Below, piece after piece: positions 5,694 to 64,000 of a stretch of DNA of 64,000 nucleotides (its first letter is position 1; every line of letters begins with the position of its first letter). Source of the stretch: Rhodothermales bacterium (GTDB taxonomy: Bacteria; Bacteroidota; Rhodothermia; Rhodothermales; VXPQ01). The notes under the pieces are model-generated. The model was not told where the DNA came from, ran no database searches, and saw nothing but the letters and a program-made list of their open reading frames with translations. The stretch spans positions 51,524 through 115,523 of the forward strand of contig JBBDTI010000054.1 in the NCBI GenBank assembly GCA_040904565.1, given 5' to 3'. The position numbers and the translations under genes were made by a program.

Positions 5694-6539
5694 ATGTTCT
5701 TAAAGCGCAGGAACCTCAATCGGCGTGTTTTTTTAGGCGGCGTGTTAGGTTGCGTAACCGCCTGGCTCTTTTTCGCAGGCGACGTCCGCGCGCAGGCTGA
5801 CGGCGCATTCGAATGGCCGGCGGACAACGTGATGGCTCTCAGCCTGAGTTTTGACGATGCGCGTACGAGCCAGGTGGATGTCGGGCTCGATCTGTTCGAT
5901 CGGACGGGTGGTCTGGTCACTTTCTTCGTGGTTCCGGGGGCCGTCGAGCAGCGCCTGGACGGCTGGCGGCGCATGCGAGCGGCGGGCCACGAGATCGGGA
6001 ATCACACGCTCACTCATCCGTGTACGGGCAATTTTTCGTGGGCGCGCGACAAGGCGCTGGAATCGTACACGCGCCAGGCGATGCGTCATGAGCTCACGGC
6101 CGCTAACCGCCGTATAGAAGAATTGCTGGGCGTGACGCCGGCGGTGTTTGCCTATCCGTGCGGCCAAACGTTCGTCGGGCGCGGGGTCGAAACGCTGAGT
6201 TACGTGCCGCTCGTCGCAGAGCTATTCCTGGCCGGACGTGGGTGGTTGGACGAAGCGCCGAACGATCCTACCTTCGTCGATCTCGCCCAGGTGCTCGCCA
6301 TCGAGATGGACGGGAAGACCTTCGAGGAGCTGCTGCCCGTTCTCGAACAGGCTGCGGCCGACGGGAAATGGGTGGTCCTGGCGGGCCATGAGATTGGAGA
6401 CGGCGGAGCACAGACCACACGTGTTGACACGCTCGAACGGCTCATCCGCTATGTGAATGAGCCGTCCAATCACGTCTGGCTGGCCCCCGTCGGTACCGTG
6501 AGCCGGTATGTCGTCGAACAGCGAAGCTCCGGCCGCTAG
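5694..6539 (+). CDS. Polysaccharide deacetylase (CE4/NodB-like), exported
   Basis: 'SLSFDD', 'GHEIGNHTLTHPC', 'FAYPCG', 'LAGHE'; RR-containing N-terminal signal. Confidence 0.9.
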   Translation: MFLKRRNLNRRVFLGGVLGCVTAWLFFAGDVRAQADGAFEWPADNVMALSLSFDDARTSQVDVGLDLFDRTGGLVTFFVVPGAVEQRLDGWRRMRAAGHEIGNHTLTHPCTGNFSWARDKALESYTRQAMRHELTAANRRIEELLGVTPAVFAYPCGQTFVGRGVETLSYVPLVAELFLAGRGWLDEAPNDPTFVDLAQVLAIEMDGKTFEELLPVLEQAAADGKWVVLAGHEIGDGGAQTTRVDTLERLIRYVNEPSNHVWLAPVGTVSRYVVEQRSSGR

Positions 6540-6545
6540 GATGCG

Positions 6546-9119
6546 CTACTCACCGCCCTCTTCACCTTCTTCCGCCTCGACGGCCTGATTGATGCCCTCG
6601 AGAATGACGGCCTGCTTTTCGGCGTTCTCCACGCTGCCGAGGTAGGTGGACAGCGTGGCGAGCGCGTCTTCCGTTCCGATCGCAGCGATGCGGCTGACGG
6701 TGAAGGAGAGGATGCGTGGGAGCTGGGCGGCGAGAGCCACGTCCATCGCCCTGTTCAGGTCGGTCGGGACGACCGGTTCCATGGCATACCAGGTCATGAG
6801 GGGAAGATTGCGATCGCCCGCATCTTCCGCCCGCCGGGTAAGCCCCTCGAGCACGTCCCATCTATTTTCCGGTTCCGTTCGCTGCAGTGCGCTGGCGAGG
6901 TAGAGACGCACGAGCGACGAGGGATCGTCCACCGCCATCTGCTCGAAGCGGGCCAGGGCGGACTGCGGCACGTCCCGGTCTTCGGCGAGCAGCTGAATGG
7001 CCCAGCTGCGGAGATGCTCGCTCTCGTGATCGAGCAGTTCGACGAGATCCTGATCCTCGAGTCCGTCCGTCACGTGCAGCGTCCAGAGCGCGCGCAGCTT
7101 GCGCGTGACGTCCGGGTTGTCGTTCAGCATGGCCCACAGCGCATCGTGCACCCCGGCGTCCGCTCCGCGCTCCTGCAGGAGGAGCCGCGAGCGCCGTACG
7201 TACCATTCGTTCTGATGCAGCTGCAGCTCGGCGAGCTCCGCCGACGAGCGTTCCGCCAGATTCACGTCCACCCATTCGTCATTTTCATGCGTGATTTTAA
7301 AGATCCTCCCCGTCGAGTGGTCGTGGCTCTCCGGGTTGCCGTGGTGGCACTGGTTGACGTCGTACCAGTCGATCGTGTAGACCGAGCCATCCGGACCGTA
7401 CTGCAGGTCGAGCATCTGCGAGTAGCTGTCGTTGGCCAGCAGGAAGTCGGGGCCGTGGCGGCCGACGTATCCCGATCCGTCGCGCTCCAGGATGTCCGTG
7501 TTGGCCCGGAAGCCGTGCACGTTGTTCATGAAAAGCCGGCCGTGAAATTCGTCGGGCCAGGAGTCACCGAAATAGAACATCGCTCCGGCATGGGCGTGTC
7601 CGCCGCCGGCCGCGCCGGAGCGGCGATTGCCCGCGTGCGGTCCGCGGTTTCCCACCCAGTGGACGTGGTCGCCGGTGTGATCGAGGTCGTCGTATACGTA
7701 GGGATTAAAGTGTTCCCCGGCCTGACGCATGATACGCGCTCCCTGGATCGCATGATGTAGATGAGGGATGACGCAGGCGGTCATGAAGCCGTGCCCGTAT
7801 TCGTTCCAGTCGATGCCCCAGGGGTTGCTCGTACCGTAGGTGAACACCTCGAACTCGTGGCTGGTGGGGTGGAAGCGCCAGGTTCCGGCATTGAGCTTTA
7901 CGCGCTCCTCTTCCGGCGTGCCCGGGGCGCCCACATTGGAATGGGTAAAGACGCCGTGCGTGCCGTAGAGCCATCCGTCCGGTCCCCATGAGAAGGAATT
8001 CAACGTTTCGTGCGTGTCGTGATACCCCCATCCGTCGAGGAGGATTTCCGGCTCACCCGCCGGCCGGTCGCCCGATGCGTCGATCGGAATGTACATGAGG
8101 TAGGGGGCGGCACCGACCCAGACGCCTCCCAGGCCAACCTCGAGGCCGCTTATGAGGTTAAGCCCTTCCGTGAACACCTTTCGGCTGTCCAGCGAACCGT
8201 CGCCGTCGGTATCTTCGAAGATGAGGATGCGGTCGCGGCCTTCGCCTTCTTCCGCGCGCACGGGGTAGGTATGGGCTTCGGCGATCCAGACGCGGCCTCG
8301 CTCATCCAGCGCCATCGCGATGGGATTGATCACGTCCGGCTCGGCGGCCGCGAGCTGGGCGCTAAATCCGTCGGGAAGATCCATGGCCGCGGCGGCCTGT
8401 TCGCCGGTTAGTCCGGCGTGGACGACCTCATCCCACGCCGGGAGTGCAGAGACCTCCGAAGACTGAATTTCGTTCGGGAAGGACGGCCGTTCCGCGTGGA
8501 AGCGGAAGTGATCGAAGCTGATGTGGGCGAATGGGTTTTCTCGGATGTACATGGCCGTGGAAGCACCCGCATCCGCGTCGACGAGGCGGATGAAGATCCG
8601 GTCGCCGACGTGATCGCTCAGATCGGCCACGACGGGGCGAAGTTCAAACGAGTTCGTGCCGCTCATCGAAAAAACGACTTCAGCGCCGTCCGTCAGAACG
8701 AGTTCCGCCCGGGTACTTTCGAATGCCCCGCCGGCGAGCAGGAAGCTCGCATACGGTTCCGTGACCTCGAACGCTACCGACGTAAGCTCGCCCTGTCCGC
8801 TCGGGCCGTGCGCGAGGACGGAACTCACCCAGTAGTCGCCCTCGTGACCGCTCCGTGCGTCCTCTTCGCGCTCCGCGACGATCTCGGCCTCACGCGAGGC
8901 GTACACGTCGCCCTGAACGGGCTGGCCTTCGAAGGCATCGCCGTCGGCCGTCCAGTCGGCCAGCGTGCCGGCCTCGAAATCGAGGTTGAGTGTGCGTCCG
9001 GCGTCATCCGTAGGGGCTACACCTGCATCCTGGGCCGCGGCGGGGGCGGCCGCGAGCAGGATGCAGGTCAGAACGAAAAGAAATACCTGCGGGAGAGACG
9101 TGTGCGTTGACATGATCAT
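6546..9119 (-). CDS. PVC-type membrane-bound dehydrogenase domain protein (TIGR02604-like propeller + HEAT repeats), no CxxCH
   Basis: 'LPDGFSAQLAAAEPDVINPIAMALDERGRVW', 'DRILIFEDTDGDG', 'WGPDGWLYG', 'SNPWG', C-terminal helical repeats; signal peptide. Confidence 0.85.
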   Translation of the reverse strand: MIMSTHTSLPQVFLFVLTCILLAAAPAAAQDAGVAPTDDAGRTLNLDFEAGTLADWTADGDAFEGQPVQGDVYASREAEIVAEREEDARSGHEGDYWVSSVLAHGPSGQGELTSVAFEVTEPYASFLLAGGAFESTRAELVLTDGAEVVFSMSGTNSFELRPVVADLSDHVGDRIFIRLVDADAGASTAMYIRENPFAHISFDHFRFHAERPSFPNEIQSSEVSALPAWDEVVHAGLTGEQAAAAMDLPDGFSAQLAAAEPDVINPIAMALDERGRVWIAEAHTYPVRAEEGEGRDRILIFEDTDGDGSLDSRKVFTEGLNLISGLEVGLGGVWVGAAPYLMYIPIDASGDRPAGEPEILLDGWGYHDTHETLNSFSWGPDGWLYGTHGVFTHSNVGAPGTPEEERVKLNAGTWRFHPTSHEFEVFTYGTSNPWGIDWNEYGHGFMTACVIPHLHHAIQGARIMRQAGEHFNPYVYDDLDHTGDHVHWVGNRGPHAGNRRSGAAGGGHAHAGAMFYFGDSWPDEFHGRLFMNNVHGFRANTDILERDGSGYVGRHGPDFLLANDSYSQMLDLQYGPDGSVYTIDWYDVNQCHHGNPESHDHSTGRIFKITHENDEWVDVNLAERSSAELAELQLHQNEWYVRRSRLLLQERGADAGVHDALWAMLNDNPDVTRKLRALWTLHVTDGLEDQDLVELLDHESEHLRSWAIQLLAEDRDVPQSALARFEQMAVDDPSSLVRLYLASALQRTEPENRWDVLEGLTRRAEDAGDRNLPLMTWYAMEPVVPTDLNRAMDVALAAQLPRILSFTVSRIAAIGTEDALATLSTYLGSVENAEKQAVILEGINQAVEAEEGEEGGE

Positions 9120-51270: not shown

Positions 51271-51697
51271 TACCACGACGCAGCTGCGACTGGAGCGTCA
51301 CTATCATGCCTCCCCCGAAGCGGTATTTGCCGCGCTGACCGAGCCGGCGCTCCTGGCCCGATGGTTCGCGCCGACCGACGAGATGGAAGCCGTCATCGAT
51401 CGGTTCGAGGCGCGCGTCGATGCGCCGTATCGCATCGAGATGCACGCTCCGTCGGGCGACGTCCATGTGGCGATCGGTGAGATCCGCGAGGTCGTGCCGA
51501 ACGAACGACTCGTCTACACGTGGAAATGGGAAGGCGGTGAGATGGGTGATACGCTCGTTACGTGGACGCTCGAAGCCTCAGAGTCCGGCACCGTTCTTCG
51601 CCTGCTCCACGATCAATTTCCGGACGAAGAGGCGCGAGACCGCCACCTGGTCGGCTGGAACGGCTGCCTGGCTCGACTTCAGCCGCTGCTCGTTTGA
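51251..51697 (+). CDS. SRPBCC/AHSA1 domain protein
   Basis: 'ASPEAVFAALTEPALLARWF', 'PNERLVYTW', 'HLVGW'; canonical ArsR partner. Confidence 0.9.
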   Translation: MEQPTTDTTTQLRLERHYHASPEAVFAALTEPALLARWFAPTDEMEAVIDRFEARVDAPYRIEMHAPSGDVHVAIGEIREVVPNERLVYTWKWEGGEMGDTLVTWTLEASESGTVLRLLHDQFPDEEARDRHLVGWNGCLARLQPLLV

Positions 51698-54220: not shown

Positions 54221-54287
54221 TTCACGCCGCGTGCGCACCCGTCCGTATCTGCCGGCTACGTGCTGTATCACAGGCTCTGGAATCGCC

Positions 54288-54890
54288 ATGCTCTCAAGAT
54301 TCGTCCAGCTTTTTGCCTTATTGGTCGCACCGCTTCTCGTCGTACCGCAAACCGCCTCCAGCCAGGTTTTCGTAAGCGGGGGCGCGGCCTGGCCCCTTTC
54401 TCCGGAGAGCACGACGAACATATACAGGAGCGGTTATTCCTTCGCTGGAGGCGTTATCCTCGAGTTCGGCGCCTTTCCGTTTGCCAGGGTGAGACCGTTC
54501 GGCAGCTTCCAACGATTTCGAACGGACCCCGGCCCGTTCCTGGATCAGTTCGAGAACATCGACGAGGTAGAAGGCGGCGAAATGCCGGTGATTTTCGCGG
54601 GTGTGGATCTGCAGTTCATGCATCCGTTCGCCCGATTCAGGCCGTACCTCGCTCCGGCGATCGGCCTGGCCGTGTTCTCGCTCGACGATATTACGGCGGA
54701 TGGAATTACGTTCAATCTGCAGGACGAATCGGCGGGTGTCGGCGTCGGCGTGGGCGGAGGCTTTGCCTACGAGGTGACGCGCAACTACCAGCTTTTCGCC
54801 GACGTGCAGTACGTCTACGTGGTTCTGGAATCGAACGACCGCACATTCGTGCCGGTGCGTGTGGGGATCGAACTCGCCTTCGATTACTAG
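54288..54890 (+). CDS. Outer membrane beta-barrel protein (8-stranded OmpA/OmpW-like)
   Basis: Signal peptide, amphipathic strands, 'RPYL', aromatic C-terminus 'GIELAFDY'. Confidence 0.8.
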   Translation: MLSRFVQLFALLVAPLLVVPQTASSQVFVSGGAAWPLSPESTTNIYRSGYSFAGGVILEFGAFPFARVRPFGSFQRFRTDPGPFLDQFENIDEVEGGEMPVIFAGVDLQFMHPFARFRPYLAPAIGLAVFSLDDITADGITFNLQDESAGVGVGVGGGFAYEVTRNYQLFADVQYVYVVLESNDRTFVPVRVGIELAFDY

Positions 54891-55015
54891 CCGTACGACG
54901 AACTGGCGGATGTCGCGCGCGTCGCGTATCCGGCCGTGGCACGTTCCAGCCCGGCATTCATATATTCCAGTCGTTGTTGTTTTGCGCTCCTACCCCAAAT
55001 CTATCGTACGGTCCA

Positions 55016-56017
55016 ATGCGAAGCTCTCTCTCGTTCTACGTTGCTACCTGCCTCACTGCGTTTCTCCTGGCCTCCTGCGGGCCACCGGCCTCACAGGCGC
55101 AGCTTCAGGCCGGCTGGCAGATCGTCGAGACGGAAGGCGAGTATACCCCTCGCAGTGAAAACGCACTCGCCGAGGTGGACGGGAAGCTTTATCTCGTTGG
55201 CGGCCGGGGGATGCAGCCCGTCGACGTCTACGATCCGGAGACCAGTACGTGGTCGTCGGGCACCGGTGCACCCATAGAGATACATCACTTTCAGGCGGTC
55301 GAATACGACGGCAAGATCTATGTCGTCGGGGCGTGGACGGGCGGCTTTCCAACGGAGCAAGGAATCACCCACGTGCTCATCTACGATCCGGAGGAAGATG
55401 CGTGGACGACCGGTCCGGAAATTCCCGAGCCCCGCCGGCGTGGAGCCGCGGGTGCCGTCGTGTACGACGATCATATCTACGTCGTCTCCGGTAATCGCGG
55501 CGGTCACGGTCCGCATGCAACGGCCGTTACCTGGCTCGATCGACTGGACCCGCGGGCGGGTACCTGGGACGAGCTCGCCGATGCGCCGCACCGTCGAGAT
55601 CACTTTCAGGCGGCGGTGGTAGACGATAAGCTGTACGCCGTGGGTGGACGAACCTCCGATATCGAGGGCTTTATCGACAGTACGGTCGCCGCCGTGGACG
55701 TGTACGATTTTTCATCCGACACGTGGTCTACCGTGCCGGATGCCCCGATCCCAACCCAGCGAGCCGGTGCAGGAACGGCCGCATTCGGTGAGCATATCTT
55801 CGTTTCGGGCGGAGAGGGGTTCGGTGAGGCATGGGGCGAAACCGAGGCGTTCGACACCTCGACCGGGACCTGGGAGTTCGTCGACATGCTGAACCGGCCC
55901 CGCCACGGCATACAGATGGTCCTGTTCGATGACAGACTCTGGGTCGCCGGCGGTGCCGGTGCACAGGGCGGCGGTCCGGAAGTGGAAGAAATGGAAATGA
56001 TGGATCTATCCAACTGA
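55016..56017 (+). CDS. Kelch repeat lipoprotein
   Basis: About six 'GKLYLVGG...YDP...W' repeats; lipobox 'LASC'; start moved to ATG 55016. Confidence 0.9.
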   Translation: MRSSLSFYVATCLTAFLLASCGPPASQAQLQAGWQIVETEGEYTPRSENALAEVDGKLYLVGGRGMQPVDVYDPETSTWSSGTGAPIEIHHFQAVEYDGKIYVVGAWTGGFPTEQGITHVLIYDPEEDAWTTGPEIPEPRRRGAAGAVVYDDHIYVVSGNRGGHGPHATAVTWLDRLDPRAGTWDELADAPHRRDHFQAAVVDDKLYAVGGRTSDIEGFIDSTVAAVDVYDFSSDTWSTVPDAPIPTQRAGAGTAAFGEHIFVSGGEGFGEAWGETEAFDTSTGTWEFVDMLNRPRHGIQMVLFDDRLWVAGGAGAQGGGPEVEEMEMMDLSN

Positions 56018-56026
56018 TCACTTCCT

Positions 56027-57358
56027 ATGGTACGCCTAACACGTGTAGATTCGGTCGTCCTCTCAGGGCGTTGCCTGAGCTTCATGCTGCTGTTCGCATG
56101 GGTCACGCTGCCCGCTACGGCGCACGTGACGGACGCCGAGCAGCGGATGATTGAATATATCGACGCACACGATGCGGAGGCCCGTGCGCTTCTGGAGCGA
56201 GCCGTCAATATCAACAGCGGTACCATGAACGTCGCCGGCGTACGTGAGGTAGGGCGCCTGTTTCGATCGGCATTCGATAATCTCGGCTTCGAGACGCGAT
56301 GGGTAGACGGCGAAGCGTGGGGACGTGCCGGTCACCTCATTGCGGAGCATCGGGGGTCCGGCCCGCGGATGGTGCTGATCGGTCACCTAGATACGGTATT
56401 CGAGCCCGACAGCCCGTTTCAGAAGTACGAGCTGCTGGACGACTCAACCGGACACGGTCCGGGCGCAGCCGATATGAAGGGTGGGATCGTCGTCATGCTT
56501 CAGGCCATGAAGGCACTCCGACATGCCGGTGTTCTCGACGAGGTCGACGCCACCGTGGTGTTGATCGGCGACGAGGAGAAAAGCGGCCGGCCGCTCTCGC
56601 TCGCACGCCGGGATCTGATCGATGCGGCGCGCCAATCCGCCGTCGCCCTGGGCTTCGAGAACGGGGATAATGATCCGGGTACGGCCGTCGTATCGCGCCG
56701 CGGATGGACCGGCTGGGTCCTTCGATCCACGGGGCGGCCCGCACATTCGTCGCAGATTTTTCAGGAGGATGTGGGGGCGGGTGCCGTATTCGAGGCGGCA
56801 CGCGTGCTCAGCGCCTTCTATGACCGGCTGTCCGATCAGGAGTATCTCTCGTTCAATCCCGCTATTACGCTGGGCGGGACTCATGTCGAGTTCATTCCGG
56901 AAGCGGACCGTGGGACGGCTTCCAGCAAGATCAACATCGTGGCGGAGCGCGCCGTCGTCCCGGGAGATCTCAGAACCCTGTCAATCGAGCAGCGCGAGCG
57001 CGTGAAGGAAACCATGCGCGATATCGTCTCCCAGAGCCTGCCGCATACCTGGTCGGAAATCAGTTTCGACGACTCGTATCCTCCTATGGCCCCCACGGAC
57101 GGCAATCGCAACCTGCTGAGTCGGTATGACGGGGTGAGCCGCGACCTCGGACTCGGTCCGGTGGAGGCCGTTAATCCACGCAACGCCGGAGCGGCAGACA
57201 TATCTTTTGCCGCCCAGCATGTGGAGATGGCAATCGACGGACTCGGATTGCTGGGCGCCGGCGGGCATACCATCGACGAAACTGCCGACCTGCGACTGCT
57301 TCCGACGCAGACGAAACGGGCCGCGCTGCTGATCCATCGTCTCTCCACGACGCCGTAG
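56027..57358 (+). CDS. M20 family metallo-hydrolase (carboxypeptidase G2-like)
   Basis: 'IGHLDTVF', 'GPGAADMKGG', 'GDEE', 'AHSS', 'GGHT'. Confidence 0.9.
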   Translation: MVRLTRVDSVVLSGRCLSFMLLFAWVTLPATAHVTDAEQRMIEYIDAHDAEARALLERAVNINSGTMNVAGVREVGRLFRSAFDNLGFETRWVDGEAWGRAGHLIAEHRGSGPRMVLIGHLDTVFEPDSPFQKYELLDDSTGHGPGAADMKGGIVVMLQAMKALRHAGVLDEVDATVVLIGDEEKSGRPLSLARRDLIDAARQSAVALGFENGDNDPGTAVVSRRGWTGWVLRSTGRPAHSSQIFQEDVGAGAVFEAARVLSAFYDRLSDQEYLSFNPAITLGGTHVEFIPEADRGTASSKINIVAERAVVPGDLRTLSIEQRERVKETMRDIVSQSLPHTWSEISFDDSYPPMAPTDGNRNLLSRYDGVSRDLGLGPVEAVNPRNAGAADISFAAQHVEMAIDGLGLLGAGGHTIDETADLRLLPTQTKRAALLIHRLSTTP

Positions 57359-57406
57359 TGCCCCTCCGCGACCCCGTCTGGTGGAGAAGAGGCCCTGCTG
57401 CCGGCG

Positions 57407-57787
57407 CTATGCGTCCTCGAACCGGGCGAACGTGACGACGTTGCCGGCCGGCTCGCGGACGATGAGCTCGTCGGCCCCGTAGAACGTCTTTCGCCGAGGA
57501 ATGACGCGTTCGGCCGATGCGAGTGCGTCGTCGACGGCGTCGAGATCGTCGACTTCGATAAAGACGAAACTGCCCCGTTGGGGGGCGTCCGCCAGCTCGG
57601 GGATATCGTTTCGGACGCTCTCTAGGGTCTGATACATGAGTTCTACCGCGCCCTTGCGTAGGATAACGAAACCCAACCGGTCGCCTTCCGGCACCTCGGT
57701 GGTCACCTCGAAACCGAGCGCCTCGGTCCAGAATGGCAGGACCGGCTCGATGGCGTCGACGAGCAAAACTGGGGTGATCTTTTTCAT
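57407..57787 (-). CDS. VOC/glyoxalase family protein
   Basis: 'FWTEALGFE', 'FIEVDDLD', 'FYGADELIVREPAGN'. Confidence 0.88.
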   Translation of the reverse strand: MKKITPVLLVDAIEPVLPFWTEALGFEVTTEVPEGDRLGFVILRKGAVELMYQTLESVRNDIPELADAPQRGSFVFIEVDDLDAVDDALASAERVIPRRKTFYGADELIVREPAGNVVTFARFEDA

Positions 57788-57856
57788 AGCGGTAGGAGAT
57801 GGGTGGAACGGATCGAATGCCCTTGCCGGGCATGCCCATGATACAATAGCCGAGCC

Positions 57857-57886
57857 ACATATAATATATGTTCATACATATATTAT
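57857..57886. promoter_or_regulatory. AT-rich inverted repeats upstream of the VOC gene (candidate operator)
   Basis: ataatatatgt-tcat-acatatattat (11-4-11, 57861-57886) overlapping acatata-a-tatatgt (57857-57871). Confidence 0.65.
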
Positions 57887-59202
57887 CCGAGGTGCTCGCT
57901 GTTCAAGAGGTGTCTGTACCTCGTGAACGTGGTCACCGATCGGTCGAGGATGAGGTCCCGCTGGGCGAGTGGGCGCCGTAAGATGAGACCCTCGAGCGTT
58001 CGGCATCTGCTGAGCGCCACGTAAACCTGCCCGTGGGCGAACGTTCCCCCGGTAAGGTCGACCACGACGCGGTCGAACGTCTTTCCCTGACTCTTGTGGA
58101 CGGTGATGGCATAGGCGACCTTCAGCGGCAACTGGATGAACATTCCGATCGTCTCCGCCTCGATGCGCTTACTGCGCCGGTCGTACTCGTAGCGAACCAT
58201 CTCCCATTCGACGGGCTCGACCTCGACGATCTCACCGTCGACCTCCACCTCCACCGTTCGGTTTCCCAGCGCGTGTATACGCCCCATCGTTCCGTTCACC
58301 CAGCGACGGTGGACGTCGTTCTTGACGAACATGACCTGTGCCCCGACCTTGAGAGCGAGCGCTTCGGGTGCCGGAAGCGGCGGGTTTTCGGCAGAAGCGA
58401 ACGCGCCCTCCAATATGCCGTCATAGCGGCCTGAAGCTCCCTCCAGACGATTCAGATTCTCGACGTTGATCTCGTGCGCCCGCGCGTTCGTCGTCGTCAG
58501 CGTTACGTACGGCTGGTCGGGTGGCGGCTCAAATCCCGGCCGGCACCGCGCATTGAGCTGCTCTACGGTCTCCGGCGTGACGCGCGCATGCCGAATGGCA
58601 TTCAACAGATGGATGAAGCGGTCGTCGTCCTGACGGAAGATGCGCTCCAGCTCGATGGTCTCCATCCCCGACTCCTTCAGTACCGCCGCACTGAAGAAAT
58701 ACGGGGTCCGATAATGCGCTTGCAGGAAGCGGCGCTCGGCCGGACTCGACACGACGGGCGGCAGCTGATACGGATCGCCGACGAGAATCATGCGGATGCC
58801 CCCAAAGGGCTCGTCGCGGGTCGGTCCGTTTAGACGCAGAAACCGGTCCATCCCATCGAGCATGTCGGCCCGTACCATCGAAATCTCATCGACGACGACC
58901 GCGTCGAGCGCCTTGTAAAGTGATCGGTCCGGCAACTCCTCGACGTCCGTCGAAGCAATCGGGCGCGGAGGAAATCGAAAAAAAGAATGTACGGTTTCCC
59001 CATGCACGTTCAGCGCGGCGATGCCCGTGGGTGCAACGACCGCCATCTTAAGATCGGTTTCCTCACGGAATCGCCGAAGGAGCGTCGATTTTCCCGTACC
59101 GGCACGTCCCGTGATGAAGAGGCATGCCGGACCGTCTTTCATCAGTGCCAGCGCGTGGGCAAGCTCGGGCGTGGATGTAAAAGAAGAAGACAGCGAGCCC
59201 AT
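57883..59202 (-). CDS. PIF1-like SF1B DNA helicase
   Basis: 'TGRAGTGKS', 'APTGIAA', 'DEISMV', 'GDPYQLPPV', 'LKVGAQVM', 'AITVHKSQG', 'YVALSR'. Confidence 0.93.
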   Translation of the reverse strand: MGSLSSSFTSTPELAHALALMKDGPACLFITGRAGTGKSTLLRRFREETDLKMAVVAPTGIAALNVHGETVHSFFRFPPRPIASTDVEELPDRSLYKALDAVVVDEISMVRADMLDGMDRFLRLNGPTRDEPFGGIRMILVGDPYQLPPVVSSPAERRFLQAHYRTPYFFSAAVLKESGMETIELERIFRQDDDRFIHLLNAIRHARVTPETVEQLNARCRPGFEPPPDQPYVTLTTTNARAHEINVENLNRLEGASGRYDGILEGAFASAENPPLPAPEALALKVGAQVMFVKNDVHRRWVNGTMGRIHALGNRTVEVEVDGEIVEVEPVEWEMVRYEYDRRSKRIEAETIGMFIQLPLKVAYAITVHKSQGKTFDRVVVDLTGGTFAHGQVYVALSRCRTLEGLILRRPLAQRDLILDRSVTTFTRYRHLLNSEHLG

Positions 59203-59400
59203 GGTCGTTTTAATGGAGGACTACGGCACTGGACAATACTGAATGGCACCAACAAATTCTTTGGTCCGAGGTCATGTTTCGGTCGGCTCACGTGTCTGAC
59301 GTAGAGAAGCGGGGAAGGTCCCCGTTTGCGGTCCGCCCCGGACCCTCATTTCCGGCGGCGCACGGATTCCCCCCGTTCACAACCTGCTCGGATAACCGTC

Positions 59401-61650
59401 ATGGACTCACCGATCGAAGCGGCCGGACGCGTAGGAGCTCATTCCGTGAAGGCGGGAACGGATGCGGCCGCATGCACGGCGGCTGTGATGCTTCATTTCG
59501 GCGTGGCCGCACCTTTCATCGAGCCGGCAGGAGGCACGCTGCTGGATCTTTACAATTGCCTCGCCGGCTGCGACCTCGACGTCCACGCGTACGCTGGAAC
59601 CGTTGCCGGACTCCGGGAAATGGAAGGCCCCAGCATCCTCCTGCTCGATGAGCCGGAGGGAGGCGTGCGCCCGGTCGTGTGTTTCGGCGTCGAGGCCGGA
59701 AGTTTCGTCGTTCTCGACGTGCGCAGCGGGGCCCAACCGTATACGGCGTCGGAACTCGTCTCCAGGTGGACGACGCGCGCCATACTTCACGTCGCCGGTG
59801 TTCGTTCTCGAACCGTGGGTCGGTTTCGTTCCTTCGATGTGACGTGGGCCCGATTCGGTCGAGAGCGGGCCTGCGTACGTGCGAACCGGACGAATACGAT
59901 TACGGTAGTGTCGGGAGTCGAGCTGCGTCAGTTGCTTGCCGCCGGCGTCTTCCGCACCGCCAGGGCGCATGAAGCGAATGCCTGCTCGGCCATACGAGCA
60001 CGTGATCCCGAAGGCGATGCGGGTAGCACCTCGGAGACGATCGAGCGGTGGATCCGCGACGGCCTGCTCGTCGATGAAGAACACCTCCAGAAGGAAGTGG
60101 GTGGATGTCGCTGCGATACAGACGCCTCAGCACGCCGGGAGGCCCGCGTGACCGTAATCGGCATTCCGACGCGGAATCGCAGCCACGCCGCGATGCGCGC
60201 ACTCCGCAGCTATCTGCTGGATCTGCAGACGCACGGCCGAAAGCTACGGATGTCCATTGCGGATGCCTCCGGGGCGGCCGGCCAGCAAGAGCTGCGCGCC
60301 GGAATCGAGGGGCTGCGGGTCGAGTTCGGGATGCATGTCGAACATCTGGACGACGCGTGGAAGCGCCGCACCATCGATCATCTGGCGAGTCGCACTGACT
60401 GTCCACGCGACACGCTGACGTTCGCCCTGTTCGGCCATCCGGGATGCTCGACGAACTTCGGGGCGAACAGAAACGCGCTCCTGCTGGATTCGGCCGGGGA
60501 GCTGTCGCTGCAGGTAGATGACGATACGAAGGTTCCCGTTCTGCCCGTTCCGGCCTCTCGGCCCGGCATCGACATCTCGTCGTCCTTCGATCCGAACGCC
60601 TACTGGTTCGAGGAGCCCCAAGATGAATCGCGGCGGACCGACCCGGTGGATTTCGTGCGTCTCCACGAAGACCTCCTCGGGCGAGACGCAGCGTCGATTC
60701 TGGCCGATTACGATTGGAACGAGATCGGCGTAGATCATCTCGAGCCTCTGCTTCTTCGCCGGCTCGTTCGAGGTGATTCGACGGTCGGAATTACGTTTCT
60801 CGGCACGGACGGTGACACCGGCTCGGCGACGAATGCCTGGAAGTTGTTTCTGGAGGGAGACTCACTCGCTCGCCTGCTACACGCCGGCTACGACGGCCGT
60901 GTCCGGCGTCGAGAAGGTCTCCGAACGGTCGCGCGCCGGACGGTGAGCGACGGCACCTTTTGCTCAGGTATGAACGTGGGACTGGACCATCGTGACACGC
61001 TCGCCCCATTCATGCCGTCCGGCCGGAACGAAGACGGCGTGTTCAGTGCCGTGATGGCGGCCTGCTTTCCGCAGACGCTGAGAGGGTTCAGAGAAGGCTA
61101 TGCGCTTCGCCACGCCCCCGTCGATCGACGCGCACCTTACGATAGACCCGTCCGCTTCGAGGGGCTTCGCAGCAACGATCTCATCGTACTGCTCGCGCAA
61201 GATCTTGCCGCAACCCGACCGTCCGGGGTCGCTTCAGGTCTCGGGTGGCTCGGTCAGCGGTTCCACGGAATGGCCCGGCTCGCGCAGGACGAGTTCGACG
61301 AAATCTGCTGCGGCTTAGCCCTGAAGAGCGTTTCGGCCGCGGCGATGCAGGTCGAGCAGTCGATCGCCTGCTACGGTAGATGTTCGCCGGAGTACGGCGC
61401 TGACCTGTACGCCTACCTTGAATCGATGGAAGCCTACGTACTGGGCGGTGCAGCGGGAATCCCGACCGACTTGGATGGGAGTGCTCGGGAACGATCCGTC
61501 CTCTTTCGAGACCTCGTCGGGCATTACGGCGAGCTGCTTATACATTGGCCCGACATCATACGCTGTGCCGGATCATCCAACACAATCGATCGGGCCGCGC
61601 ACGGCACTACGTCCGCCAGTGCGGGATCAGATCCGACACGGATCCACTAA
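59401..61650 (+). CDS. Putative RiPP-modifying enzyme: inactive C39-like domain + RRE-like domain + GT-A (GT2-like) glycosyltransferase domain
   Basis: N-terminal C39-like pattern; 'TIERWIRDGLLV' winged-helix end; 'VIGIPTRNR', 'IADAS', 'GANRNALL', 'VDDD', 'GRNEDGVF'; adjacent to GG-leader peptides. Confidence 0.7.
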   Translation: MDSPIEAAGRVGAHSVKAGTDAAACTAAVMLHFGVAAPFIEPAGGTLLDLYNCLAGCDLDVHAYAGTVAGLREMEGPSILLLDEPEGGVRPVVCFGVEAGSFVVLDVRSGAQPYTASELVSRWTTRAILHVAGVRSRTVGRFRSFDVTWARFGRERACVRANRTNTITVVSGVELRQLLAAGVFRTARAHEANACSAIRARDPEGDAGSTSETIERWIRDGLLVDEEHLQKEVGGCRCDTDASARREARVTVIGIPTRNRSHAAMRALRSYLLDLQTHGRKLRMSIADASGAAGQQELRAGIEGLRVEFGMHVEHLDDAWKRRTIDHLASRTDCPRDTLTFALFGHPGCSTNFGANRNALLLDSAGELSLQVDDDTKVPVLPVPASRPGIDISSSFDPNAYWFEEPQDESRRTDPVDFVRLHEDLLGRDAASILADYDWNEIGVDHLEPLLLRRLVRGDSTVGITFLGTDGDTGSATNAWKLFLEGDSLARLLHAGYDGRVRRREGLRTVARRTVSDGTFCSGMNVGLDHRDTLAPFMPSGRNEDGVFSAVMAACFPQTLRGFREGYALRHAPVDRRAPYDRPVRFEGLRSNDLIVLLAQDLAATRPSGVASGLGWLGQRFHGMARLAQDEFDEICCGLALKSVSAAAMQVEQSIACYGRCSPEYGADLYAYLESMEAYVLGGAAGIPTDLDGSARERSVLFRDLVGHYGELLIHWPDIIRCAGSSNTIDRAAHGTTSASAGSDPTRIH

Positions 61651-61668
61651 CCAAACGAGGTGAACGTC

Positions 61669-61872
61669 ATGAGAGAATTAACAGCAGAAGAGATGGTTCT
61701 CGTCGGCGGCGGACCTTGCGGCGGCGCATGGTCGTCGATCGCCGTCGAATCCACCTTCATGGCAGCAGCCGGATTCGTCGGATTCGGGCTAAGCATGGGT
61801 AATCCGGGCGCTGCAATCTTTAGCGCCGGACTCGGGCTGAAGCTTGGCGGCTTGATCTGCCGCTCCTCCTGA
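61669..61872 (+). CDS. RiPP/bacteriocin precursor 1 (67 aa, double-glycine leader)
   Basis: GAGGTG RBS at 61657-62; leader MRELTAEEMVLVGG; hydrophobic Gly/Ala core with a Cys near each end. Confidence 0.85.
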   Translation: MRELTAEEMVLVGGGPCGGAWSSIAVESTFMAAAGFVGFGLSMGNPGAAIFSAGLGLKLGGLICRSS

Positions 61873-61933
61873 CGGCCGTCGATCTCATCATCAGGATCTG
61901 AAGACAGACTCTAACTTAGACGGGGTATGAATC

Positions 61934-62137
61934 ATGAAAACGATGCACGAAGCTGAGCTGGCGCAACTGGAAGCGGGAAGCCGCAACTGCGGGAATAGAT
62001 GGCAAACCCTGTGGGTCACGTCCACGTGCTCACTGGCCGGTGGACTTATCGGACTCGCGGGTGGGCCTCTTGGGGCCTCAATCGGCTCACTGACCGGCCG
62101 GGCCGCCTGTGAATGGATCTGCCACTACGCATCCTGA
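61934..62137 (+). CDS. RiPP/bacteriocin precursor 2 (67 aa, GG-variant leader)
   Basis: Leader MKTMHEAELAQLEAG; core with four Cys and a glycine zipper; homologous to precursor 1. Confidence 0.8.
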   Translation: MKTMHEAELAQLEAGSRNCGNRWQTLWVTSTCSLAGGLIGLAGGPLGASIGSLTGRAACEWICHYAS

Positions 62138-62156
62138 TCCGGTGCGCCCTGACCGG

Positions 62157-62189
62157 GTGCGGGCCCGGTACGTTCGACCGGGCCCGCAC
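62157..62189 (+). terminator. Strong stem-loop after the precursor genes
   Basis: gtgcgggcccggt-acgttcg-accgggcccgcac: perfect 13-bp stem, no U-tract. Confidence 0.7.
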
Positions 62190-62238
62190 ACCATTCCCGC
62201 GCACCAGTCCTGCACCACGCCAACCCCCTGCGCCGCTC

Positions 62239-62955
62239 GTGAACGCATCCATTATCATCTCCTTCTGGCGCCACCAGTACCTCCGGGCCGTGCGCGCCGG
62301 CTCGGCGGCTGGACTGTTGCTCCGGATCGGTTTTGTAACACTTTCCTTGTTGACGGTCGCAGGGATTGTCTGGACGTCTGTCGTGGTGCTGCCGCATCTG
62401 GATGCCATGACCGCGATTCAGCGGGCCGTAGGCGGATTTATGAGAGACTACCTCGTCGTCGTGGCCATGGCGCTGTTCGCAGGCAACCTCTGGCTATCCT
62501 CCTCGTCGCCATTTGACGCAGCCGCCTACCGTTACCTCCCTATCTCGATTCTTAGCGTCGCGCTTATGGTTCAGGCGGCTCGATTGATGAACGCTAGATA
62601 TGCTACGCTGGGAGGAGGCCTCACGTGGCTTCAATTTGTCGTTGCCGGCGAAGGGCATTGGGGGCACGTCGCTGTCGCCGCGACGGTAGTTGTCATCCTC
62701 GATGCGGCGTCGATTATTGTTTCAAGCTCCCGGAGGCAGCGAGGTGCCGCGGCGTTCGCGCCGGGAATCATCTTTGCCGTCATCATCGTGCTCGATATGA
62801 TAACGGAGCACGCGTTGAGTGGCCGCGCGTACGAGTGGCTATTTGCCGTCGATTCTCCGGTGCGTGACGTTCCCATACGAATGGCCGCTATCGGCGGCTT
62901 GCTGGTCTGGTTCGCCAACGGCGTGATTCAAAATGACCTGAGGTACGCGACATGA
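62239..62955 (+). CDS. ABC exporter membrane subunit, resembling the N-terminal half of DUF5687
   Basis: About six TMs; 'AYRYLPI'; start placed at GTG 62239, after the hairpin. Confidence 0.6.
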   Translation: MNASIIISFWRHQYLRAVRAGSAAGLLLRIGFVTLSLLTVAGIVWTSVVVLPHLDAMTAIQRAVGGFMRDYLVVVAMALFAGNLWLSSSSPFDAAAYRYLPISILSVALMVQAARLMNARYATLGGGLTWLQFVVAGEGHWGHVAVAATVVVILDAASIIVSSSRRQRGAAAFAPGIIFAVIIVLDMITEHALSGRAYEWLFAVDSPVRDVPIRMAAIGGLLVWFANGVIQNDLRYAT

Positions 62956-63653
62956 TCGACCTGCGCGCCCCCATGCTCCAGGAGCTGGTCAAGGAGGAAC
63001 TGAGGCTCATTCTTCGCAACCGAACGACCCGCTATGTCTTCGTTGCGTTTCCGCTCGTCCTGTCGGCGACGATGATCGGTATTCTGTGGATGCCGGACGA
63101 CATTTCCGATCACGCACCGATGCTGTTTATGGTGAGTGTCTACACGCCGCTGACGTATCTCTCACTTGCAGTTTCGTGGAATGCAACGCACGCCGACGCA
63201 CTGTTCGGCCTGCCCCTATCCACCGACATGCACGTTCGAGCGCGGCTCCTCGCAGCGGGGGTGCTCTCTATACCTGTTGGACTCCTGCTGACTGCGATGA
63301 CGGCCATGATGAACGTTGAGCTCGTTTTGCTTCCGGCCGCCGCGACCATGTTCTCACTATCGGCGGCGGGACTGCCCGTCCTCTTCGTTGCCGTCCGCTA
63401 TCCCAGCCGCTTCGACGTTAATGCACCACCGTTCGCGGACTTTCGCAAATTCAGGTGGCCGCATTACCTGGTTATGATATCCGTTTTTGCACCCGCCTGG
63501 GTACTGAGCGCCTTCCTTACGAACGGACAGTTCATTCTCGCGATAGCGGGGGTCAGCCTTCTTGCTGCGCCCGCCGTTCCCTACATGCACCGACGAACGG
63601 CAGCCAAACTGACGAAAAGCGTGCCTGCTATCTGCAGGCTCTACCGGAGATGA
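62952..63653 (+). CDS. ABC exporter membrane subunit, resembling the C-terminal half of DUF5687
   Basis: 'ELRLILRNR', 'SWNATH..LFGLPL', about six TMs; ATGA overlap with the previous gene. Confidence 0.65.
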   Translation: MIDLRAPMLQELVKEELRLILRNRTTRYVFVAFPLVLSATMIGILWMPDDISDHAPMLFMVSVYTPLTYLSLAVSWNATHADALFGLPLSTDMHVRARLLAAGVLSIPVGLLLTAMTAMMNVELVLLPAAATMFSLSAAGLPVLFVAVRYPSRFDVNAPPFADFRKFRWPHYLVMISVFAPAWVLSAFLTNGQFILAIAGVSLLAAPAVPYMHRRTAAKLTKSVPAICRLYRR

Positions 63654-63690
63654 AAGGCGCATCGATCCATCCATAACCGTGCATCGGGCC

Positions 63691-64000
63691 ATGGTGACGA
63701 CATTTCGGGACTTTGAAAAGCGATATGACGACGGATTCACGCTGAGCATTCCGTGTCTCGAATTCAGAAGCGGACAGCGCGTCGGTCTCGTAGGCAACAA
63801 CGGGGCCGGTAAGACGACGCTGCTCCTGAGCATGCTCGGACTGCTGCGGTTTCAGAAGGGCGACGTCCTGGTCGATGGGCGCTCCGTTCGATCGTTCGAT
63901 GTAGGCTGGCGGTCCCAGTCGGCTGCCTATTTAGGCGAGTCGTCGCTCATACCCTTTCTGACTCCCTGGGAGTTCTGGCAGTTCGTCGGTGATGCGTACG
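63691..64000 (+). CDS. ABC transporter ATP-binding protein (truncated by window end)
   Basis: Manual translation MVTTFRDFEKRYDDGFTLSIPCLEFRSGQRVGLVGNNGAGKTT... contains a Walker A motif. Confidence 0.9.
   Translation, partial: MVTTFRDFEKRYDDGFTLSIPCLEFRSGQRVGLVGNNGAGKTTLLLSMLGLLRFQKGDVLVDGRSVRSFDVGWRSQSAAYLGESSLIPFLTPWEFWQFVGDAY

Follow-up and report, generated by a model that had tools for sequence, protein, structure and literature searches.

Two precursor genes and the enzyme gene upstream

The DNA analysed here, referred to as the window, is a stretch of 64,000 nucleotides from a sediment Rhodothermales bacterium (GenBank assembly GCA_040904565.1, contig JBBDTI010000054.1, forward-strand positions 51,524 to 115,523). 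Near its downstream end lie two short genes, pre1 and pre2, directly preceded by a gene encoding a 774-residue enzyme. The three genes are interpreted below as the first part of a probable bacteriocin cluster in which the enzyme may glycosylate the products of the two small genes. The features on which this interpretation is built are as follows.

59326..61650, + strand: three-domain enzyme of 774 amino acids, directly upstream of pre1; start TTG 59326, alternative start ATG 59401
Enzyme residues ~30-165: C39-like domain
Enzyme residues ~166-262: recognition element for peptides made on the ribosome and modified after translation (RiPP recognition element, RRE; PqqD-like)
Enzyme residues ~270-755: glycosyltransferase domain of GT-A fold and GT75-like architecture
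61669..61872, + strand: precursor 1 (pre1), 67 amino acids, ATG start; in-frame GTG at 61660 as alternative start
61669-61713, + strand: pre1 leader, 15 residues, double-glycine type
pre1 core: 52 residues, two Cys (core positions 2 and 49), two GxxxG motifs, C-terminal Ser
61934..62137, + strand: precursor 2 (pre2), 67 amino acids
61934-61978, + strand: pre2 leader, 15 residues, ending in A-G
pre2 core: 52 residues, four Cys (core positions 4, 17, 44 and 48), five GxxxG motifs, C-terminal Ser
62155..62192, + strand: GC-rich hairpin directly 3' of the pre2 gene, without a T-run

A first-pass annotation of the window had described two homologous precursors sharing a sequence motif, each with a central G-x-P turn and an IC ending, and with two and four cysteines; the open reading frames and every one of these features are present. 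In the ungapped alignment of a 22-residue segment nine positions are identical (C, G, W, V, S, T, A, G and G), the turns read G-N-P and G-G-P, and the C-termini are ICRSS (IC plus three residues) and ICHYAS (IC plus four). The Cys residues of pre2 at full-length positions 19, 32, 59 and 63 correspond to core positions 4, 17, 44 and 48 given a 15-residue leader, a spacing of Cx12C … Cx3C. The combined Gly and Ala content of the cores is 37% for pre1 and 29% for pre2. Double-glycine leaders typically carry hydrophobic residues at positions -4, -7 and -12 and Glu at -8. Both leaders agree with this pattern at all four positions and end (-2/-1) in G-G or A-G, and the leader columns are conserved across the 20 family sequences of alignment A11. 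From this fit, cleavage is predicted after residue 15 in both precursors, which gives each the cleavable, usually double-glycine leader of a ribosomal glycocin precursor. No Pfam or NCBIfam model matches pre1 or pre2, PF10439 included. A feature search of the Atlas placed pre1 closest to clusters of double-glycine class II bacteriocins and lactacin-F LafA (0.92-0.93, to be read as a lead only), and the Atlas structure search matched the cores to transmembrane-helix fragments.

Direct comparison of pre1 and pre2 by BLASTP was weak (E 0.002 over 17 residues), and homology was evaluated with profiles that included peptides from related Rhodothermales loci. Eight of these loci (L002-L008 and L010) encode, in place of pre1 and pre2, a 74-residue peptide (type A) and a mostly four-Cys peptide of 55-57 residues (type B), while L001 encodes type B alone, the type A gene being absent. 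Profile-profile comparison with hhalign connected the pre1 group with the pre2 group (74%, E 2.7e-5, 61 columns), the pre1 group with type A over the full length (93.8%, E 1.7e-7) and the pre2 group with type A over the first 46 columns (91.3%, E 9.6e-7), in agreement with the homology of the two precursors claimed by the first-pass annotation. The pre2 group and type B were matched in the leader only (E 0.02); type B peptides, considered as pre2 orthologues, were rejected as such since there is no detectable homology past the leader, and are positional equivalents only. At locus L009 the enzyme gene is likewise followed by both window-type peptides, in unchanged order. Comparison with these orthologues gave pN/pS values of 0.26/0.71 for pre1 and 0.26/0.70 for pre2, corresponding to a ratio of nonsynonymous to synonymous substitution rates (dN/dS) of ~0.15-0.16. 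Since the genes recur in the same order with dN/dS this low, comparison of the sequences indicates that pre1 and pre2 are real genes under purifying selection, distant paralogues within a small family.

Word-indexed homologue searches retrieved, apart from pre2 itself, nothing but one 94% relative of pre1. When 1.84 billion representatives were searched exhaustively with a profile, 13 proteins were returned at E <= 0.001, ten of which are 66-90 residues long; the other three are long proteins (908-1284 residues) with 10 to 16 matched stretches each. In the source genome pre1 and pre2 are the sole members of the family. Signs of decay were seen elsewhere: a type A peptide (P0028) loses the frame after ~33 residues, and the type A gene is missing from L001 (8172-8241).

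The region 62130-62215, containing the hairpin, folds with -47.9 kcal/mol (z -5.04), a value equalled by none of 200 shuffled sequences. In L002 a hairpin differing in sequence stands at this point (z -3.93); that of L009 is weaker and not significant (z -0.93). The hairpin is probably a transcript-stabilising or attenuating stem-loop that parts the precursor genes from those downstream. The stretch between pre1 and pre2 showed no significant structure (z +1.09), and a scan for promoters and terminators gave nothing above shuffled controls.

Domains and distribution of the 774-residue enzyme

The AlphaFold2 model of the enzyme (pLDDT 82.8) consists of three parts. The first, residues 31-164, superimposes on the peptidase domains of PCAT1, ComA and LahT with Z 14.9-15.7 and rmsd 2.2-2.8, and its profile matches PCAT1, a peptidase-containing ATP-binding cassette transporter (PCAT), with E 6.5e-6. 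PF03412 matches homologues of the enzyme that are ~40% identical, and PF19787 (DUF6271) or, weakly, PF00535 matches more distant ones. The catalytic Cys is conserved in the eight sequences aligned to PCAT1, and the catalytic His is replaced in all eight: by Arg in six, by Pro in the window and by Tyr in L009. The fold of peptidase C39 is thus kept with an incomplete Cys-His(-Asp) set. Because the catalytic His is replaced throughout, the modelled domain is taken to be C39-like and not a peptidase, and it should bind double-glycine leaders without cutting them. A 775-residue homologue from another Rhodothermales family (L093 1847-4174; G169:C160), read by eye, seemingly keeps the C39 catalytic His. 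No precursor gene adjoins it; rpmH and rnpA lie upstream, and downstream come two permeases resembling FtsX/MacB, then the conserved membrane protein, a thioredoxin-like protein with CxxC, and a PCAT.

The second part, when folded alone (pLDDT 88.3), is made up of strands followed by three helices, the three-stranded sheet and three-helix winged helix of an RRE. Searched against 48,161 chains, the model matched TigE (Z 9.8), MibB (9.1), TbtB (8.1), MccB (7.8), TbiB1 (7.5) and a lasso B1 protein (7.3), both leader-bound, MadB (7.0), McbBCD (6.8), ThcOx (6.8), NisB (6.6), the RRE of PbtF (6.0) and PqqD (5.7). RiPP enzymes that bear an RRE dominate the top 16 matches, the Z values being moderate; in sequence the region has no match to PF05402. 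The model indicates that residues ~166-262 have the RRE fold, from which leader binding is predicted. A complex of enzyme residues 26-270 with pre1 was predicted with scores of 0.21 and 0.18 against a mark of 0.32, which, the prediction being without controls, is evidence neither for nor against binding.

The third part, residues 271-753, is closest to rice UAM2, a UDP-arabinopyranose mutase (8cid; Z 21.3 over 317 residues), and to MtdL (7xps; Z 21.1), the two alignments spanning 308-317 residues and other GT-A enzymes scoring about Z 15. No SunS-type chain was present in the best 50 structural matches listed for the enzyme, a result still compatible with kinship. In the family alignment the DDD motif at residues 398-400 is invariant (15/15), H596 is nearly so, and R-N-E-D occurs at ~567-570. 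According to PMC9937993, Mn2+ is held in GT75 enzymes by a DDD motif together with a His, an Arg becomes self-glycosylated, and an Arg/Asp pair lies near the sugar; UAM2 and MtdL are there described as nucleotide-sugar mutases acting through an Arg-sugar adduct. Judged by their spacing, the DDD, His and R-x-x-D of the enzyme would correspond to the catalytic residues of MtdL.

PF00535, the weak match in the distant homologues P0013 and P0016, does not match the enzyme itself, nor does PF19787, to which P0016 scores 25.9 against a cut-off of 25. Structure rows of the Atlas tie enzyme residues 248-740 to DUF6271 clusters, and the enzyme is a distant DUF6271 relative that is not a member by the Pfam model. 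In an Actinomycetota cluster of the same Atlas rows (window 59401-61647), DUF6271 domains are fused to condensation domains of non-ribosomal peptide synthetases in 96% of 72 members, which hints that the fold serves natural-product pathways more widely.

The enzyme alignment (A2) was compared with species-representative genomes, giving 102 candidate stretches and 77 confirmed loci in many phyla. The cluster recurs in ten Rhodothermales loci. The enzyme gene is directly upstream of the peptides in all ten, and is followed by a type-A-like peptide in nine and by a second peptide in ten. Of 201 genomes sampled from the order, 25 (G000 included) contain the enzyme at E <= 1e-20, among them 11 of the 18 genomes of the window's family and 10 of the 12 of one genus. 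The tblastn matches of the remaining loci (L011-L077) start at residue 158 or later and comprise the RRE and glycosyltransferase (GT) domains without the C39-like domain. One of them, from Ktedonobacter robiniae (L039 420-2112 and 11309-13261), places the RRE-GT homologue beside a PCAT and at least four Gly-rich double-glycine peptides of a different family, some with GYG or GFG repeats, which may be substrates of the same type of enzyme. A 75-residue peptide (L096 7833-8057; G093:C1) is encoded in divergent orientation beside a paralogous RRE-GT gene and has a type-A-like double-glycine leader, two Cys and a terminal Ser. Within 6 kb of the enzyme, weaker ABC-type matches were found in L046, L065 and L068.

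Conserved residues, remaining genes and the proposed pathway

Residue conservation was counted in the 20-sequence alignment A11, and that of the last residue in 29 peptides, the same 20 and nine of type B. The N-terminal core Cys (Cys17), the C-terminal Cys (Cys64), Gly38 and Gly56 are each conserved in 20 of 20 sequences; Trp21 is present in 13, and position 26 is Val in 14 and Ile in the remaining six. The last residue is Ser in 26 of 29 peptides and Cys in three, with no other residue found. The three peptides ending in Cys each contain five Cys, an odd number, the others having two to four, and the terminal Cys replaces Ser in three of the five pre2-like relatives. In sublancin and glycocin F an odd Cys accompanies four Cys engaged in two disulfides, and the C-terminal Cys of glycocin F is S-glycosylated. 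Because the last residue is always Ser or Cys, and because the odd Cys recalls that arrangement, conservation points to the C-terminal Ser or Cys as a tentative candidate for the acceptor, preferred over the internal Ser-Thr pair. Two other positions were rejected. The Arg following the last Cys, considered as an acceptor in GT75 style, is present in only 12 of 20 sequences, the others having Lys, His or Tyr. An internal Ser or Thr shared by all cores was not found: the S-S of type A, invariant in 8/8 type A peptides of alignment A8 and present also in P0020 and P0021 (A11), aligns with F-M in pre1 or C-S in pre2, not with S-T.

The genes downstream of the hairpin in the window are listed below.

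62239..62955, + strand: membrane protein, the in-frame GTG 62239 being a likelier start than the listed 62113
62952..63653, + strand: 233-residue membrane protein with matches to DUF5687 (PF18940, E 2.7e-10) and DUF2232
63679..64000, + strand: N-terminal 107 amino acids of an ABC ATPase whose gene is truncated where the contig ends

The reading frame of the ABC ATPase runs on into contig C70, the two contigs overlapping by 55 bp, and is followed there by a conserved 231-residue membrane protein, a thioredoxin-like protein and a 699-residue PCAT. The thioredoxin-like protein has the CxxC motif C-E-Y-C and an N-terminal transmembrane helix consistent with membrane anchoring. In the genome, which is 95% complete, PF03412 matches no protein but this PCAT, whose peptidase domain keeps the Q/C/H/D motif intact. 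The same three genes follow the peptides contiguously in L001-L008 and L010, and the contig of L009 ends ahead of them. They are also present in the degenerate L015, where only an enzyme fragment (residues 236-458; 6001-6660) precedes the membrane protein, thioredoxin-like protein and PCAT. The 231-residue protein was considered as a DsbB-like partner, which it does not seem to be, its C-x4-C not being kept in L002 and no Pfam model matching it.

The listed start 62113 of the first membrane protein overlaps pre2 and the hairpin; its product is a candidate immunity or permease component, and that of 62952..63653 may act as permease together with the ABC ATPase encoded next. Searches with phmmer found no counterparts of these two membrane proteins and the ABC ATPase in the other loci. 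The three genes (62239-64000 and L080 1-477) form a module inserted, in this genome only, between the precursors and the conserved membrane protein, and may constitute an added immunity transporter. The upstream neighbours look unrelated. They comprise genes for a protein with Kelch repeats (54260-56017) and a peptidase of family M20 (56027-57358) and, on the - strand, a 234-residue open reading frame without family (57171-57875) and a gene for a helicase resembling PIF1 (57883-59202).

These results are best accommodated if pre1 and pre2 are paralogous precursors of a two-peptide, disulfide-stapled and probably glycosylated bacteriocin, a glycocin-like RiPP, a reading to which we assign a probability of about 0.6. 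The more general part of this reading, that they are PCAT-processed, disulfide-bonded precursors of bacteriocin type, is considered distinctly likely; for the part in which the 774-residue enzyme glycosylates them, the balance tips only slightly in favour. In the proposed pathway each precursor would consist of a leader of 15 residues, of double-glycine type, and a core of 52 residues that is rich in Gly and Ala and bears GxxxG motifs, and the enzyme would capture the leader through its RRE, its His-less C39-like domain, or both. The GT75-like GT-A domain, with its DDD motif, conserved His and R-x-x-D, would then move a sugar from a nucleotide sugar onto the core. The single PCAT of the genome would cut after GG or AG and export the cores, and the membrane-anchored CxxC thioredoxin-like protein would oxidise their Cys, so that core 1 would acquire one head-to-tail disulfide (Cys2-Cys49) and core 2 a total of two disulfides. 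The products would be antimicrobial, possibly in synergy with each other, and the producer would be protected by the conserved 231-residue membrane protein together with, in this genome, the extra ABC transporter.

Several observations weigh against this interpretation. The enzyme has no Pfam match even at E 10 and no NCBIfam match, and its whole-length profile found among PDB sequences only a chance match (E 0.28). The proteins nearest to it in structure are not transferases acting on peptides but mutases of nucleotide sugars, in which an Arg of the mutase itself becomes glycosylated. Most homologues from outside Rhodothermales lack a PCAT within 6 kb, one being clear only in L013, L039 and L040 of 67 loci, and L029 (Chthoniobacter) shows no obvious peptide. 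In the source genome the genes for the thioredoxin-like protein and the PCAT are connected with the rest of the cluster across the contig junction, bridged by the 55-bp overlap and the in-frame ABC ATPase. The argument for a C-terminal acceptor is one of conservation, in which shared ancestry makes the counts overstate independence. The host is diderm, and passage of the peptides through the outer membrane is left unexplained by the pathway. Finally, the sequencing runs listed for the source are four DNA runs of one sediment study, with no RNA run, and are silent on expression.

Among the alternatives, the one that survives best, although improbable, is that the peptides are an unmodified two-peptide bacteriocin of class IIb type, only cleaved, exported and oxidised, with the enzyme acting on an envelope glycan, serving an immunity function or being a regulator-like leader binder. 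The layout of two adjacent double-glycine peptides with GxxxG motifs (two and five) is that of class IIb, the nearest Atlas clusters are class II and lactacin-F-like, and the wider enzyme family mostly lacks an adjoining PCAT. This alternative leaves without a role the fusion of the catalytic domain to two leader-binding folds (C39-like and RRE), the position of the enzyme directly before the peptides in 10/10 Rhodothermales loci, and the invariance of DDD and other residues of active-site type.

A lower probability is given to the proposal of the first-pass annotation that the cores form glycocin-type helical hairpins with nested disulfides, with the Ser-Thr pair as the site of O-glycosylation. 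Sublancin and glycocin F are symmetric Cx6C … Cx6C helical hairpins. An alignment of homologous precursors, set beforehand as the test, confirmed the outer Cys (20/20) but showed the Ser of the pair in only 5 of 20 sequences and the Thr in 9, and the closest orthologue of pre1, that of L009, reads A-T there. Of the ten window-like peptides (rows 1-10 of A11) nine retain the Thr, which favours the proposal as far as that clade is concerned; in all ten type A peptides it is replaced by Pro, Ala or Ser. The gene context is glycocin-like. With respect to the disulfides, Cys2 and Cys3 of type B are lost together in L005 and L006, with Cys1 and Cys4 kept. This pattern is compatible with nested C1-C4 and C2-C3 pairing of the kind proposed for core 2, but it comes from a single lineage, and L007 has lost Cys1 alone. 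The symmetric arrangement itself is absent, core 1 having only two Cys and core 2 the spacing Cx12C … Cx3C, which also counts against a glycocin proper. The earlier interpretation is therefore partly supported: right in kind (homologous precursors, conserved Cys, glycocin-like logic) and wrong on the site, with the hairpin fold unproven.

Equally improbable is that the enzyme is a nucleotide-sugar pyranose/furanose mutase, a self-glycosylating protein or some other nucleotide-dependent modifier of peptides. Its best structural matches, UAM2 and MtdL (Z 21), are mutases working through an Arg-sugar adduct (PMC9937993), and DUF6271 has no known function; yet a free-standing mutase needs neither an RRE nor a C39-like domain, and no second, furanose-using glycosyltransferase was seen in the cluster. 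That the peptides are exported signals or small membrane-inserted peptides and not toxins is very improbable, for although the cores are hydrophobic and match transmembrane-helix fragments in the Atlas, the immunity-type membrane and ABC genes, the PCAT and the paralogous peptide pair have the layout of a bacteriocin locus.

Significance and comparison with known systems

No description of the combined C39-like, RRE and GT75-like architecture was found in the literature searched, which comprised openly accessible main texts (neither supplements nor subscription papers), and a full-text search for 'DUF6271' returned nothing. To our knowledge, no peptide substrate has been described for the GT75 scaffold. 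The RRE-GT core, with 77 loci in many phyla and, in Ktedonobacter, a PCAT and Gly-rich double-glycine peptides beside it, invites a more speculative reading, which we hold at somewhat less than even odds. In it the cluster would represent a new type of RiPP: a GT75-scaffold family, recruited to peptides by the RRE and, in one Rhodothermales family, also by a disabled C39 domain, would attach a sugar to the C-terminal residue (Ser or Cys) of two-peptide bacteriocins stapled by disulfides, and would do so in a diderm. If true, glycosylated bacteriocins would extend to Rhodothermales and possibly to many other phyla, and the RRE-GT family would be a widespread, unstudied system of peptide glycosylation. 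With a disabled C39 domain and an RRE on one catalytic domain, the protein would be a naturally occurring RiPP enzyme that has two modules for leader recognition. The peptides form a small, clean family that has three sharply conserved positions (two Cys and the last residue) and offers hypotheses that are easily tested. The mining of glycocins has used SunS/GccA-type glycosyltransferases as a handle, for example in a similarity network seeded with GccA (PMC12457901). A cluster of glycocin logic built around an unrelated three-domain enzyme would escape such mining.

RRE-Finder listed RREs fused to PF00535 glycosyltransferases, a combination described as new and mentioned only in general terms (PMC12710340). 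The passage concerned names no GT75- or DUF6271-like enzyme, no C39-like domain and no product, and the supplements of that work may list the family. The C39-like domain has the same fold as the C39-like domain (CLD) of HlyB (3zua) and the leader-bound C39 peptidase LahT150 (6mpz). The HlyB CLD has likewise lost a catalytic residue with the domain kept, and it binds its substrate without cutting it. Unlike these, the domain described here is fused to a modifying enzyme and not to a transporter, and it has retained the Cys and lost only the His.

The GT75 family includes the plant UDP-arabinopyranose mutases, or reversibly glycosylated polypeptides, and the bacterial MtdL, whose self-glycosylated Arg is Arg159. 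With these the enzyme shares the architecture of a GT-A domain, a core and C-terminal helices over ~310 residues (Z 21), the DDD motif, a conserved His that follows the motif at a distance of ~196 residues and an R-x-x-D that precedes this His by 26-29 residues, to be compared with the similarly spaced D111/H287 and R257/D260 of MtdL (PMC9937993). It differs from them in sequence (12-17% identity, no Pfam or PDB sequence match) and in its additional peptide-binding domains.

Class IIb bacteriocins such as lactacin F (LafA/LafX) and lactococcin G resemble the cluster in having two adjacent double-glycine peptides with GxxxG-rich hydrophobic cores, a PCAT and an immunity-type membrane protein. 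The peptides of this class are not known to be modified. In contrast, the cluster described here has peptides with invariant terminal Cys and no match to PF10439, and it encodes an oxidoreductase and a modifying enzyme; the adjoining enzyme argues against peptides that are unmodified in the sense of class IIb.

Glycocin clusters consist of a precursor, a glycosyltransferase, a PCAT and thioredoxin-like proteins, as stated in PMC12457901. The analogy to glycocins drawn by the first-pass annotation is supported in this respect, because the cluster likewise comprises precursors, a GT-A-fold enzyme (here with leader-binding domains), a CxxC thioredoxin-like protein and, nearby, a PCAT; it fails with respect to the Cys spacing. 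Like sublancin (sun), glycocin F (gcc) and thermoglycocin (thg), the system combines leader-bearing precursors with these proteins and has an even number of Cys for disulfides beside a Ser or odd Cys as possible acceptor. Unlike them, it has two precursors per cluster, an enzyme not recognisably of SunS/GccA type (no PF00535, GT75-like, with an RRE and a His-less C39-like domain) and a diderm Rhodothermales host, the glycocin producers encountered in the literature being Bacillota. Because the Cys spacing is not that of a glycocin and glycosylation is so far a prediction, it is not a demonstrated glycocin, and is best described as a glycocin-like cluster with a C39-like/RRE/GT75-like enzyme.

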